Source: Pseudobutyrivibrio sp. (GTDB lineage: Bacteria > Bacillota > Clostridia > Lachnospirales > Lachnospiraceae). From it: a stretch of DNA of 64,000 nucleotides. The stretch covers positions 193-64,192 of the forward strand of contig NZ_JAFUSK010000076.1 in assembly GCF_017471675.1 (NCBI RefSeq). Direction: 5' to 3'. How positions within the stretch are numbered: position 1 is the stretch's first letter; the number at the start of each line of letters is the position of its first letter. The notes beneath the pieces were generated by a model that worked only from the letters and a program-made list of their open reading frames with translations, did no database searches and was not told the origin of the DNA. The position numbers and the translations under genes are program-made. Of this stretch, positions 49,256 through 54,473 are shown in pieces.

Positions 49256-49295
49256 AAAAAAGCAAGTTCTGGTGAATCCGGAACTTGCTTTTTTT
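49256..49295. terminator. Bidirectional terminator; also the group IIC intron targeting hairpin
   Basis: AAAAAAGCAAGTTCTGG-tgaat-CCGGAACTTGCTTTTTTT ending just before the intron 5' end. Confidence 0.9.
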
Positions 49296-49496
49296 GGTTT
49301 GCGCGCCATGGGCGCGCTCTAACGGGTGAAAGTCCCGAACACGCCCAGATAGTGGGAAGTGTATAGCTGAACAGCAAGACCTGCTAAGAGTTGTCAAGTG
49401 ATATATATGAAAGTTAGTATATTTGATTTTAGAGCATAAGAAATAGACTGCCTGAAATAGCCAGTCAAAGAGAATCTGATATTTTTGTATTTGTTT

Positions 49497-50696
49497 TTAA
49501 ATAGAGTTTAAGTAAGCACTTATTCTTGCATAATAGATTCTTAAAAATTTATTACAGCCTGCAATCATATAGACATAGTAATGCTTTCCTTCAGCTCGTT
49601 TTTTATCCAAAAACTGATAGACTGGATCATCGATTTGTTGATGTCGAAGGATACAATCCATAACTGTAAAAAGTGTCTTACGTAAAGCCGAAGAGCCTCG
49701 CTTTGATATACCACGACTCTTTATATCAATGGTTCCTGATTGATATGGAGAAGAATCGATACCGGCATATGCTATTAATGCCTTACGGCTATGAAATCTT
49801 CTGATATCACCAATCTCAGCAATAAGTTGTGGTCCTAATGTTGTTCCTACTCCATGAAGAGACATGACTGCAGGATATTCAGGTAATTGAGACGCAATAC
49901 GGTTCATCTCTTGACGGATTTTTTCTAAAGCGTCAATCAAAGAAATAAGTTCTTTGGCAGTTTCTGTAATTATGAGTTTTGTATTAGCATTTGCCGGCAT
50001 GCTTGCAACTTTTTGATTGGCTAATTGGTAAATATCATTAACTTTGTTTGACTGATAGTGATAACCATTTTTAGAGCACCACTTCTGGTACGAACGTTCA
50101 AGTGACTTAATTGTTTTTGTGGTTATACAGTCTTTGTGCCAATAATCTTTGATAAAGTCAATCCATTTTTGGTGACCATCTTTGCGTGGTGTTTTGCCAA
50201 ACAATCCATCAATACCAGGAAATGTTTGATCTGATAAAGCTATGAGATTATTTATCAAAGCTACTTTAAGTTTGGTGTACTGCGTGAACTGACGGTTGTA
50301 GATTTTAAGAGCCTGACGTAATTCTTCTTCTGGTATATATTCAGGTAAATCAAGCCACCGATTCAATCCGTAGTTTGCGATTTTTATAGCATCCTTTTTG
50401 TCAGTCTTAACTCTACGAATACTGTAGTTGTCGTAATCATGGATAAGTATGGCGTTAACAACTGAAATGTAGAGGCCAGAGTTATACAGATAATTAGCAA
50501 GTGGTTCATAGTAACGACCTGTATATTCCATAACAATTCTAGACTCGCCTTTAAGAGATTTGATTTGCGAAACAAGCTTTTCAAAATCTTCTTCTGTGTG
50601 ATTGATTTCAAAAGGTGAAGCAACGATTTCGCCGAAAGGACGCATGATGGCAACAGTACTTTTTCCTTTAGAAACATCAATTCCTACTGAATTCAT
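49497..50696 (-). CDS. IS110 transposase/recombinase (DEDD RuvC-like + Transposase_20), 399 aa
   Basis: RBS AAGGAG; VGIDVSK, MEYTG, KTDKKDA; GVGTTLGPQLIAEIGDIRRF, YQSG, ISKRGSSALRK. Confidence 0.96.
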   Translation of the reverse strand: MNSVGIDVSKGKSTVAIMRPFGEIVASPFEINHTEEDFEKLVSQIKSLKGESRIVMEYTGRYYEPLANYLYNSGLYISVVNAILIHDYDNYSIRRVKTDKKDAIKIANYGLNRWLDLPEYIPEEELRQALKIYNRQFTQYTKLKVALINNLIALSDQTFPGIDGLFGKTPRKDGHQKWIDFIKDYWHKDCITTKTIKSLERSYQKWCSKNGYHYQSNKVNDIYQLANQKVASMPANANTKLIITETAKELISLIDALEKIRQEMNRIASQLPEYPAVMSLHGVGTTLGPQLIAEIGDIRRFHSRKALIAYAGIDSSPYQSGTIDIKSRGISKRGSSALRKTLFTVMDCILRHQQIDDPVYQFLDKKRAEGKHYYVYMIAGCNKFLRIYYARISAYLNSI

Positions 50697-51369: not shown

Positions 51370-52653
51370 ATGGACACAAGTAGTCTAATGGAGCAGATAC
51401 TATCCAGCGATAATCTCAACAGAGCATATCTGCAAGTCGTACGAAACAAAGGTGCAGAGGGAGTGGACGGTATGAAGTACACAGAACTCAAGGAACATCT
51501 TGAAAAGAACGGCGATATCATCAAGGAACAGTTGAGGACAAGAAAGTATAAACCTCAGCCAGTACGAAGAGTGGAGATACCAAAGCCTGATGGTGGCATC
51601 AGAAACCTAGGAGTACCAACAGTAACAGACAGATTTATACAACAGGCCATAGCACAGGTTTTAACACCAATCTATGAGGAACAATTCCATGACCACAGTT
51701 ATGGATTCAGACCTAATAGATGTGCACAGCAAGCAATCCTAACAGCGCTCGACATGATGAATGACGGTAATGATTGGATTGTAGATATTGACTTGGAAAA
51801 GTTCTTTGACACAGTAAATCACGATAAACTTATGACCATCATAGGTAGAACTATTAAAGATGGAGATGTTATTTCTATCGTTAGGAAATACCTAGTCAGT
51901 GGAATCATGATTGATGATGAGTACGAGGACTCTATTGTGGGAACACCACAAGGAGGAAATCTCTCGCCATTACTGGCAAATATCATGTTGAATGAACTTG
52001 ATAAGGAGATGGAAAAGCGTGGGCTTAACTTTGTAAGATACGCAGATGATTGTATCATCATGGTTGGTAGTGAAATGTCTGCTAATAGAGTTATGAGAAA
52101 TATCTCTCGATTCATTGAGGAGAAACTAGGTCTCAAGGTCAACATGACCAAGAGTAAAGTAGACAAACCAAGTGGACTAAAATACCTTGGATTTGGATTC
52201 TACTTTGATTCAAGAGCCCATCAGTACAAGGCAAAACCACATGCAAAATCGGTAGCGAAGTTTAAGAAGAGGATGAAAGAACTTACATGTCGTAGCTGGG
52301 GCGTTAGCAACAGCTATAAAGTAGAGAAACTTAATCAGCTCATCAGAGGATGGATTAACTACTTCAAGATAGGAAGTATGAAAACTTTATGTATGAAGAT
52401 GGATAAACACATCCGATACAGACTCCGCATGTGCATTTGGAAACACTGGAAAACTCCACAGAATCGTGAAAAGAACCTTGTAAAACTTGGAATTGACAGA
52501 GATACTGCAAGACGAGTTGCATACACAGGTCATAGAATAGCCTATGTTTGCAACAAGGGAGCGGTGAATGTAGCAATAAACAATAAGAGACTGGCCTCAT
52601 TTGGATTAGTCTCAATGTTAGACTATTACACCGAAAGGTGTGTTACTTGTTAA
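51370..52653 (+). CDS. ltrA: Group II intron reverse transcriptase/maturase, no endonuclease domain (427 aa)
   Basis: MDTSSLMEQILS, RRVEIPKPDGGIRNLGVPTVTDR, SYGFRPNR, DIDLEKFFD, GTPQGG, RYADD, LGF, RGWINYF. Confidence 0.98.
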   Translation: MDTSSLMEQILSSDNLNRAYLQVVRNKGAEGVDGMKYTELKEHLEKNGDIIKEQLRTRKYKPQPVRRVEIPKPDGGIRNLGVPTVTDRFIQQAIAQVLTPIYEEQFHDHSYGFRPNRCAQQAILTALDMMNDGNDWIVDIDLEKFFDTVNHDKLMTIIGRTIKDGDVISIVRKYLVSGIMIDDEYEDSIVGTPQGGNLSPLLANIMLNELDKEMEKRGLNFVRYADDCIIMVGSEMSANRVMRNISRFIEEKLGLKVNMTKSKVDKPSGLKYLGFGFYFDSRAHQYKAKPHAKSVAKFKKRMKELTCRSWGVSNSYKVEKLNQLIRGWINYFKIGSMKTLCMKMDKHIRYRLRMCIWKHWKTPQNREKNLVKLGIDRDTARRVAYTGHRIAYVCNKGAVNVAINNKRLASFGLVSMLDYYTERCVTC

Positions 52654-52760
52654 GTTGATTGAACCGCCGTGTACCGAACGGTACGCACGGTGGTGTGAGA
52701 GGTCGGAAATTCTCATCAGAGAGAATTTCCTCCTACTCGATTACCAATTATATTATATAC

Positions 52761-54473
52761 TTACTTATTATTCAGATATATTGTGCTGCCAGCTTTAATG
52801 GAACTGCTTTTATAAGTAACCTCAGGGGTGAAACTTCTTGAATGTAGGGTATTGCTAGAAGTATTTATACTTAGTATGCTCTTGTCTCTTATAAGCAAAG
52901 AAACTGATTTATTTAGCTTATTATCAGAAACATAGAACGGACAATTATTAACATTAGAGGTTGTTGCAATGTAATCTAATGTTTTTATATTGTTACCATT
53001 AATATTACTTATTATGTTAGTAGTATTATCGAGATACTCTATTCCAAATAGAAAGTTTGCATCAATATAATTGTTGATGATATTAACTATTGATGTATTA
53101 ACATTTTTGCAACATACAAGAGCCCTATACGAGACAATATTATTAGAATAAAATTCATTTCCTTCTAAGGTAATGTTATGTTTTGATTGTGTATTATTTT
53201 CATATAGGAATATAATTGCGTAGGTATTAGTATATGGGTCGGAATTCCATCCGTATAGTTTAAAGTATGATGATGCTAATCTAATATCAGATGTATGAGT
53301 TAACTGAGTAATTTTGATTACCTTATTACTCATACTATTAATGTAAAACTTACAAGTGTTTATGCCTAGTCCATGAAATTCGCCTTTTGATAGGGAGATT
53401 ACATTTTCATTATAATGTTCATTAATATTAAAAATACAGTCTGAAATATTAATAGTGTTAAAATTACCGTTCCATAAACCAATACATTCATCTTTTGTAG
53501 TGTGAGTGAAAGTAGAACCTATAACATTTATATTTGAAAATTTTTTAGACGTGGTTCCAGATGGCCCATTAAACCATAGACATCCACCTCTAAGATTTTG
53601 GTTGTTGTTGCCAGAACCAGTTTCATTGTCGAAGGTACATTTGTATATGTTTATATTGTCCATGACATTGCAGTGCTTAAACCAAAGCAGATTAACGGGA
53701 ATATTAGTAGTCGCAGCATCTCTGTTTCTAGCAATAAAAGAACAATGTTTCATAGTACAGCTTGTTACATCGGTTAATTGAAAAAGAGTAGATTCTGCAG
53801 AGGAAAGAGGATGATTTGCAGAAGTATTATATTCAAAATTAATGTTATTTAGTGTTAATGAAATACTAGGACTATGAATATTTGAAAAAACCCAATCCCC
53901 CGATGGTGAAAAAGTTTCAGTAACAGATAGAACAGCGTTAGCTTGGCCATAATAGTTTAAGGTTTTAAGCTTTATAGGTTTATCAATTAGATATGTTCCA
54001 GTGTTAAATTGAATACCATAAATTTTGTTACGTGAAGAGAGTTCTATAAGCTGGTTAAGTTTATCAGAGATTTCTGCTCCAGGAAAAATGCCAGCACAAG
54101 CAACATTTAAAATAGTATTACTATCATATAGAAGGTTGGCGTATTTACCGTTTTTCAATTTAATAACGAATATATCGTCTGGGGAAGAAGGTGCAGAATC
54201 TGTAATTAGGTATGTTGCAGCACCACCGTCCCCGTAATTATAATATCCACTGGTTTGAACTGAAACGCCTGTGTTTACATTTGCATAACGTAATTCATCT
54301 AGGGAATTTATTTGAGCAATATTGCTTGTAAAATTAATCCGATTATCATATTCAGAATGTGTTACGGATATATTATCATCAACGTCTTTATGATTAAAAG
54401 GATTATATAATAATAAAATGATTGTTAATAAGATAAATGTATATAGTTCCTTGTGCTTAAAATAATTATTCAT
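52761..54473 (-). CDS. Membrane-anchored beta-helix protein, paralogue of 47532..49247
   Basis: N-terminal TM; TSGYYNYGDGGAATY; LRGGCLWFNGPSGTT, HTTKDECIGLWNG shared with the paralogue. Confidence 0.7.
   Translation of the reverse strand: MNNYFKHKELYTFILLTIILLLYNPFNHKDVDDNISVTHSEYDNRINFTSNIAQINSLDELRYANVNTGVSVQTSGYYNYGDGGAATYLITDSAPSSPDDIFVIKLKNGKYANLLYDSNTILNVACAGIFPGAEISDKLNQLIELSSRNKIYGIQFNTGTYLIDKPIKLKTLNYYGQANAVLSVTETFSPSGDWVFSNIHSPSISLTLNNINFEYNTSANHPLSSAESTLFQLTDVTSCTMKHCSFIARNRDAATTNIPVNLLWFKHCNVMDNINIYKCTFDNETGSGNNNQNLRGGCLWFNGPSGTTSKKFSNINVIGSTFTHTTKDECIGLWNGNFNTINISDCIFNINEHYNENVISLSKGEFHGLGINTCKFYINSMSNKVIKITQLTHTSDIRLASSYFKLYGWNSDPYTNTYAIIFLYENNTQSKHNITLEGNEFYSNNIVSYRALVCCKNVNTSIVNIINNYIDANFLFGIEYLDNTTNIISNINGNNIKTLDYIATTSNVNNCPFYVSDNKLNKSVSLLIRDKSILSINTSSNTLHSRSFTPEVTYKSSSIKAGSTIYLNNK

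Follow-up and report, generated by a model that had tools for sequence, protein, structure and literature searches.

The window analysed here is the whole 64,000-nucleotide (nt) stretch of a Pseudobutyrivibrio sp. contig (NZ_JAFUSK010000076.1, positions 193 to 64,192, assembly GCF_017471675.1), in which a bacterial group II intron carries an insertion sequence (IS) of the IS110 family, the two nested elements lying between a pair of convergent genes. The intron occupies the plus strand from 49297 to about 52741, starts with GUUUGCGCGCC, ends ...CUCGAU, and would measure 1.86 kb without the IS. The IS (49379-50960, minus strand, 1,582 bp) has no inverted repeats and a CT core at both ends. It enters the intron 82 nt from the intron 5' end, separating a 5' segment (49297-49378, which begins GUUUGCGCGCC and ends ...CAGCA-AG) from a remainder (50961-52741) in which Rfam and Pfam place the rest of domain I through domain 4 (D4), the reverse transcriptase (RT) open reading frame (ORF), and domains 5 and 6 (D5/D6). 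Rfam models match this remainder on the plus strand at 50967-51144 (RF02001, 142.6 bits), 51181-51259 (RF01998, 42.1 bits) and 52662-52741 (RF00029, D5/D6 including the intron 3' end, 44.4 bits). The RT/maturase ORF (51334-52653, plus strand) encodes 439 amino acids (aa) with RVT_1 and GIIM domains and no endonuclease domain; the first-pass annotation had described it as intact despite the IS, and it is indeed uninterrupted. Both the intron and the IS are present as a single copy in this genome.

The limits of the IS are set by uninterrupted copies of the intron in four other genomes of the genus, which join 49378 straight to 50963. The CT core reads AG on the plus strand at 49377-78 and again at 50961-62, and occurs only once in the intact target. 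Both IS/intron junctions are spanned by Logan contigs of a gut metagenome containing the same strain ('skips 1584, both 2') and are also present in several ENA assemblies, which argues that the nesting is not an assembly artefact.

The bridge recombinase gene lies on the minus strand at 49497-50750 and encodes 417 aa from the first ATG, or 399 aa as called in other assemblies. Pfam detects the DEDD_Tnp_IS110 (PF01548, 7.4e-30) and Transposase_20 (PF02371, 9.3e-20) domains, and the protein aligns to the IS621 recombinase (PDB 8wt6) over the GID, E-TG, KTD--DA and SK-G motifs, with low identity limited to these conserved motifs. An N-terminal RuvC-like DEDD domain followed by a C-terminal Tnp domain, the lack of terminal inverted repeats and a target duplication confined to the core are traits of the IS110 subgroup. 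The element fits assignment to this subgroup of the IS110 family, with a predicted bridge RNA in its left end. A -35 hexamer, TTGACA, is located in the right end (49392-49397) and a -10 hexamer, TACAAT, in the left end (50953-50958), both on the minus strand. In the excised circle they would be separated by 17 nt across the CT core, re-forming a consensus promoter as read from the sequence, while the integrated copy has CCACCT where the -35 hexamer would be expected, with 1/6 matches. The promoter for the bridge RNA and the recombinase thus appears to be split when the element is integrated.

The left end, the 210 nt that precede the recombinase gene, contains a candidate bridge RNA core with a two-loop layout (50758-50890, minus strand); no Rfam family matches it. 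The guides, all on the minus strand, were read by the published rules, in which the left target guide (LTG) equals the top strand and the right target guide (RTG) its complement (PMC11208160). In the target loop, the LTG plus core GGACACCCT (50858-50866) is identical to the target top strand at all nine positions, and the RTG GCAAG (50833-50837) is complementary to CT-TGC at all five. The donor loop holds a left donor guide (LDG), TTAGCAGGT (50790-50798), with a 9/9 match to the right end, plus a right donor guide (RDG), AGTAG (50762-50766), the complement of CT-ACT, with a 5/5 match to the left end. On the IS strand the target is ...GATGGACACC-CT-TGCTG..., and the circle donor is ...TTAGCAGGT-CT-ACTACAATG...; the target-loop reading, GGACACC-CT/GCAAG, is the intron site itself. 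At L049 and L050, both the target and the guide read CGACACC, versus GGACACC for both here, a difference of one covarying position. Relatives at 53-54% aa identity keep the bridge RNA stems and differ at the guide positions, while a comparison with the IS110 elements of genome G005 (45% aa) gave no usable guide or target reading.

The same IS, at 97-99% nt identity, occupies the same intron position in Pseudobutyrivibrio sp. OR37, in Lachnospiraceae bacterium XBB1006 (two copies at two loci), and in Lachnobacterium bovis DSM 14045, where its left end is truncated; it is present as remnants at this position in Lachnospiraceae AC2012 and G023. The IS protein cluster has 172 members, and two sister clusters at 78-84% aa identity have 68 and 201 members; these sister lineages occupy the same site in other class C (IIC) introns. 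Across approximately 50 contigs from lineages at 78-99% aa, every visible junction reads ...GGACACC-CT|IS|CT-TGC..., with a few instances of GAACACC or CGACACC, while the intron sequence further from the junction varies widely. No intron adjoins those IS110 elements of the genus that are more distant (42-54% aa). The guide and target matches, the recurrence of one site in about 50 contigs across diverse introns, and the single guide-target covariation together lead us to read the insertion as programmed by the bridge RNA at the CAAG^GGUGUC junction of domain I. On the same contigs, the clade appears to live only in class C introns, always antisense to them. A family-wide search of 401 genomes, one per genus, recovered only AC2012 with the IS, and scans of metagenome and viral contigs for the IS left end found none. 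We found no paper on an IS110 lineage targeting group II introns in the open-access literature. Programmed insertion by an intron-specific IS110 clade adds a new natural class of targets to a mechanism already known.

The intron itself can be assigned to bacterial class C because of its small size, its RT without an endonuclease domain, and its insertion behind terminators. Bacterial class C introns are said to insert after intrinsic terminators, a finding attributed to Robart, Seo and Zimmerly in 2007, and the present lineage resembles them in its 1.86-kb length, in its endonuclease-less RT, and in lying a few nt past a hairpin and T-run at 12 loci. Thirteen intron junctions were extracted, of which 12 were scored after one in the wrong orientation (G042) was left out; these 12 copies, from eight genomes, all start with GUUUGCGCGCC, each a few nt past a different hairpin and T-run. 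The 5' end of the lineage is GUUUG rather than the consensus GUGYG, and the 3' end, for which the consensus is AY, reads ...CUCGAU. Since GUUUG is found in every copy, including those in multi-copy genomes, the variant 5' end is evidently functional. Other host introns of the IS clade start with the canonical GUGCG. The related class C introns of the IIC-attC type (PMC3001079) likewise differ from this lineage, which starts with GUUUG and not GUGYG. The RT ORF appears to be under purifying selection, with a ratio of nonsynonymous to synonymous substitution (dN/dS) of 0.06 relative to the copy in Pseudobutyrivibrio sp. OR37, a divergence much of which may precede the arrival of the IS.

Genome G011, of the same genus, has seven or more IS-free copies of the intron that are nearly identical, and contigs break at most of them (contig ends C13, C29, C34, C36 and C40). 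The pattern resembles a burst of the intron, and no IS was found in that genome. At L051 (~130-490 and the domain I region), the host intron has the target motif AAGGGUGUCCAUCGUGAGGUGGAA in a local tandem duplication, two copies in all, and three D5-like repeats near its 3' end.

When the IS is removed from an alignment of nine diverse host introns, CAAG^GGUGUC is invariant. It is flanked by the 5' strand of one helix of domain I (AGC/GCU here, GGC/GCC elsewhere) and by a covarying hairpin capped by a GNRA loop; the IS site is therefore an internal junction of domain I and not a terminal loop. The IS puts the 5' splice site and the first 82 nt 1.58 kb from the rest of the ribozyme. With domain I split at a junction that is both invariant and internal, the ribozyme may well fail to fold, and the intron has probably lost splicing and retromobility for as long as it carries the IS.

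A single contig carries L049 and L050 at a distance of 85 kb; between the two, the IS shows no mismatches in ~1.58 kb, whereas the introns differ at 164 positions in ~1.8 kb (9%). L069 and L072 have a common IS and unrelated intron flanks. Between the source genome (G000) and OR37, the synonymous divergence (dS) is 0.027 for the recombinase (7 synonymous changes) and 0.103 for the RT (26 changes). Identical IS copies in diverged introns, the lower recombinase dS and the unrelated flanks argue that the IS moves independently of the intron. In the intron segment beside the IS, the IS-bearing copies do not form one clade: the tree requires two changes, and none of 200 bootstrap trees has one origin. 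The intron tree is mosaic, with IS-bearing copies being sisters in the RT segment and not beside the IS, so it is not decisive alone. We conclude from these comparisons that the IS reaches introns on its own, and that co-mobilisation is not needed to account for its distribution. The first-pass annotation had suggested a search for IS-carrying introns at new loci as a sign of co-mobilisation; many such introns exist, and they are explained by the IS targeting introns.

The intron and its IS separate two genes that converge on one terminator. The upstream gene (47505-49247, plus strand, 580 aa in the ORF list) has no Pfam family. Eight nt past its stop begins a hairpin at 49256-49295, with the order A6-GCAAGTTCTGG-TGAAT-CCGGAACTTGC-T7, an 11-bp stem and a 5-nt loop. 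Its folding energy is -23.6 kcal/mol on the plus strand and -19.3 kcal/mol on the minus strand, and with an A-tract on one side and a T-tract on the other it fits a bidirectional intrinsic terminator. A simple terminator scanner skipped this hairpin, whose stem runs into the A/T tracts, and folding recovered it. The hairpin would continue to serve as terminator of the plus-strand gene. The facing gene (52761-54473, minus strand, 570 aa, from the ORF list) has its stop 19 nt from the intron 3' end. Its product is a paralogue of that of the upstream gene (35% identity over 507 aa). The first-pass annotation had labelled it a beta-helix gene; Atlas features and structure do point to right-handed beta-helix or pectate-lyase-like families, for its paralogue as well, and no Pfam family matches, so the label is a lead only. 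The two genes sit between two polysaccharide operons, in a locus with Wzz, Branch, Polysacc_synt and glycosyltransferases. In the same region, a short-chain dehydrogenase gene (46555-47205) encodes 216 aa here and in one metagenome assembly, and 281 aa in two other assemblies of the locus, which may reflect a start-codon or frameshift difference upstream.

The stop of the minus-strand gene now lies ~3.45 kb from the hairpin, a distance made up of the intron (1.86 kb) and the IS (1.58 kb), in good agreement with the ~3.4 kb given earlier; prior to the intron it would have been roughly 20 nt. The earlier statement that no U-tailed hairpin follows this stop also held in two minus-strand scans from 52760 to 49300, one by consensus and one permissive and fold-based, which gave no convincing hairpin with a U-tract but only weak stems with poor U-tracts. 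The first strong minus-strand terminator candidate beyond 52761 is the old hairpin at 49256-49295. The nearby intrinsic terminator of the convergent gene has thus been displaced, and the displacement is owed mostly to the intron, not to the IS. A like arrangement is found at other loci too. We found no discussion of such an effect on a convergent gene sharing the terminator in the class C intron literature searched.

Transcripts of the minus-strand gene that read through 52761 would run antisense to the RT but in the sense direction of the left end, the bridge RNA and the recombinase, an orientation that follows from the strand layout and was correctly proposed in the first-pass annotation. 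Because the IS promoter is split in the integrated state, transcription from outside is an obvious source of bridge RNA and recombinase. A precedent is provided by integrated copies of IS621 lacking the junction promoter, in which read-through supplies enough bridge RNA and recombinase for excision and is required for it; a terminator upstream of the left end abolishes excision, as shown with plasmids (PMC13626964). It is therefore reasonable to suppose that the capsule-locus gene could drive the IS. A convergent neighbour is found at nine of 12 IS-bearing introns (G000, OR37, L049, L050, L069, L075, L099, L102 and L103; the tandem ones are L072, L101 and L104) and at three of 13 IS-free introns (L031, L080 and L085), with a one-sided Fisher p of 0.013. 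At OR37, the composite follows a 948-aa gene, and its convergent neighbour is a citrate synthase gene 13 nt from the intron end. The 25 loci are not independent, partly come from the same genomes and represent different populations, with the IS-free set mostly from one genus, so that these counts offer only a hint that IS-bearing introns tend to face a convergent gene. Metatranscriptome contigs cover 49600-49982, in the recombinase gene, and 50643-50895, in the left end, although they are strand-less and possibly derived from DNA carry-over. The sequencing runs compared with the locus consist of contigs without strand, start or end, and the RNA runs do not reach the flanks.

We consider two sequential insertions, with the consequences that follow from them, to be the moderately probable explanation of the locus. 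A class C intron first retrohomed just behind the bidirectional terminator common to the two convergent beta-helix-like genes, as shown by the anatomy of the locus and by other copies each lying behind a different terminator. The IS110 element then entered the intron by bridge-RNA-guided recombination at the target-loop site GGACACC-CT-TGC (IS strand). The first 82 nt of the ribozyme would be parted from the rest, with splicing and retromobility probably lost as long as the IS remains, and the minus-strand gene would be deprived of its nearby intrinsic terminator. Those of its transcripts that escape Rho would most obviously supply the bridge RNA and the recombinase, and so allow excision or copy-out. 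Precise excision could restore the intron, probably infrequently.

Several observations weigh against parts of this explanation. Rho is encoded in the genome, and the 1.8 kb of untranslated antisense RNA that part the gene from the IS have a C/G ratio of 1.40, reaching 28 C versus 9 G in 100-nt windows (C/G up to 3.1); Rho acts on C-rich RNA of this type and may cut read-through short. Group II introns tolerate large inserts elsewhere, such as an ORF in D4, and much of the RT divergence may be older than the IS. Exact-protein look-ups of both flanking genes found no empty or IS-free form of the locus: the contigs they returned all carry the intron, with the IS where they reach it, or break in the repeat, and JGI metagenome contigs scanned for the terminator gave nothing. 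Excision of IS621 is less efficient than insertion (PMC13626964), and a 2026 preprint describes chiefly single-strand copy-out, by which the donor stays intact and occupied. Restoration of the intron by precise excision is accordingly best described as mechanistically possible and probably infrequent. The reversible brake proposed in the first-pass annotation is supported in part: silencing of the intron by the IS is likely, and its reversal would probably be rare. In addition, truncation or a second hit is frequent among the introns that bear the IS (G023, G043, L. bovis, OR37 and L059/L067). G023 retains only the intron 5' end and 172 nt of the IS, the AC2012 IS is internally deleted, and L059/L067 lack the left side.

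Decay of this kind would be expected if the nesting were a dead end, in which the targeted IS kills the intron, the intron decays, Rho halts read-through or read-through does not matter, and the IS subsists on basal transcription without regulatory meaning. The frequency of truncated, rearranged or re-hit IS-bearing introns favours this, as do the encoded Rho with the C-rich antisense RNA, the lack of any restored locus, and the observation that low-level transcription without the junction promoter suffices for IS621 (PMC13626964). On the other hand, most copies with the IS keep an intact RT ORF, convergent sites are over-represented among IS-bearing introns, and excision of IS621 is abolished by an upstream terminator (PMC13626964), so that context should matter; we regard the dead end as possible, though doubtful. 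More doubtful still is the ambitious extension of the favoured reading, namely that the clade has evolved to exploit class C landing sites in antisense, so as to face a gene converging on the terminator, whose unterminated transcripts feed the IS and make it a host-gene-coupled switchable suppressor of the intron. If true, gene, IS and retroelement would form a three-layer circuit.

The opposite possibility, that there is no brake at all, would hold if the intron spliced and retrohomed with the IS looped out of domain I and the composite spread as a unit. Near-identical composites of intron and IS at two to three loci speak for it: L069 and L075 differ by one mismatch in 3,589 bp behind different terminators, and L099/L102/L103 and the two XBB1006 copies are further cases. 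Two IS-bearing copies grouped as sisters by the RT segment have an RT dN/dS of 0.06, which also fits. The near-identical composites are explained equally well by a burst of the intron after which the IS filled each copy, and the site of insertion at an invariant internal junction of domain I, the identical IS in introns 9% diverged within one genome, the recombinase dS four-fold below that of the RT, and the absence of a single origin in all 200 bootstrap trees of the segment beside the IS make a mobile composite very unlikely. A chimera, in which the IS/intron junctions are repeat-assembly artefacts of a metagenome-derived genome, is hardly credible: metagenome contigs of the locus do break in or at the repeat, and L042 switches to another intron variant after 51000, but independent Logan contigs and several ENA assemblies span both junctions, and the same junctions are present in isolate genomes. 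The 3% divergence of L042 was considered as a second allele and rejected in favour of that metagenome-assembly switch. The ENA contig L044 ends exactly at 49378, which is explained by a graph branch common to other introns.

Other copies illustrate what can befall such introns. In the Lachnobacterium bovis DSM 14045 copy (L017/L030), the donor loop and the recombinase gene are kept, while unrelated sequence with a TTGACA-like box takes the place of the target loop and the rest of the left end's first ~150 nt; this copy is either dead or reliant on bridge RNA supplied in trans. The OR37 composite carries, within the first 30 nt of its intron (L011 4143-5757, corresponding to ~49314-49324 in the window), an IS4-type element (DDE_Tnp_1, 445 aa) with an 11-bp target duplication. 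At L012 (G007:C4, 3549-7007), another copy of the intron has a 3.46-kb insert with three tandem tyrosine-recombinase genes (Phage_integrase x3) at the equivalent of ~50982-50989; the insert lies in the GNRA hairpin immediately 3' of where the IS110 element enters, and its joints overlap by 8 bp. At least three kinds of mobile element have thus struck domain I of the intron. Just beyond the 5' end of an IS-bearing intron in Lachnospira multipara, L096 (1832-3451) has an IS200/IS605-type pair (Y1_Tnp and OrfB/TnpB-like), and L098 contains a similar pair, which suggests that mobile elements pile up further at terminators of this kind.

The IS resembles IS621 and other members of the IS110 subgroup (Durrant et al. 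2024, PMC11208160; Hiraizumi et al. 2024, PMC11208158, and 2026, PMC13626964) in its DEDD and Tnp recombinase, in a bridge RNA of two loops, encoded in the left end, whose LTG/RTG and LDG/RDG guides take in the CT core, in a sigma-70 promoter that the circle restores where its right and left ends meet, and in precise, duplication-free insertion. It differs in its target: REP-type repeats in the case of IS621, and here, as read from the sequence, the DNA of an invariant class C intron ribozyme junction. Within the family, IS4321 and IS5075 reportedly insert in the inverted repeats of Tn21-family transposons, and IS1111-attC elements in integron attC sites. These are also site-specific, one-orientation insertions into a conserved sequence of another mobile element; the host here is instead a retroelement, with a ribozyme and an RT, whose catalytic RNA is split. 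The IS1111 type has its guide in the right end, whereas the guide of the present IS is in the left end, as in the IS110 type. A parallel for reversibility is IS492, another IS110-family element, which is said to cause phase variation of eps in Pseudoalteromonas atlantica by precise, reversible excision that restores function, with switching measured. There a host gene is restored, while here it would be another mobile element.

Most of what is known of bridge-RNA recombinases comes from REP-type targets and engineering work, and the present elements constitute a natural clade programmed against another mobile element, through a sequence that the intron apparently cannot change. A class C intron landing behind a terminator common to convergent genes would leave one of them without its terminator, a side effect that has been little noticed. 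The finding raises the questions of whether convergent read-through controls IS110 excision in nature, and whether an IS can hold a retroelement in check, for which the culturable isolates Pseudobutyrivibrio sp. OR37, Lachnospiraceae XBB1006 and Lachnospira multipara offer a test bed. In this clade nature offers a clear-cut example of parasitism between selfish elements.

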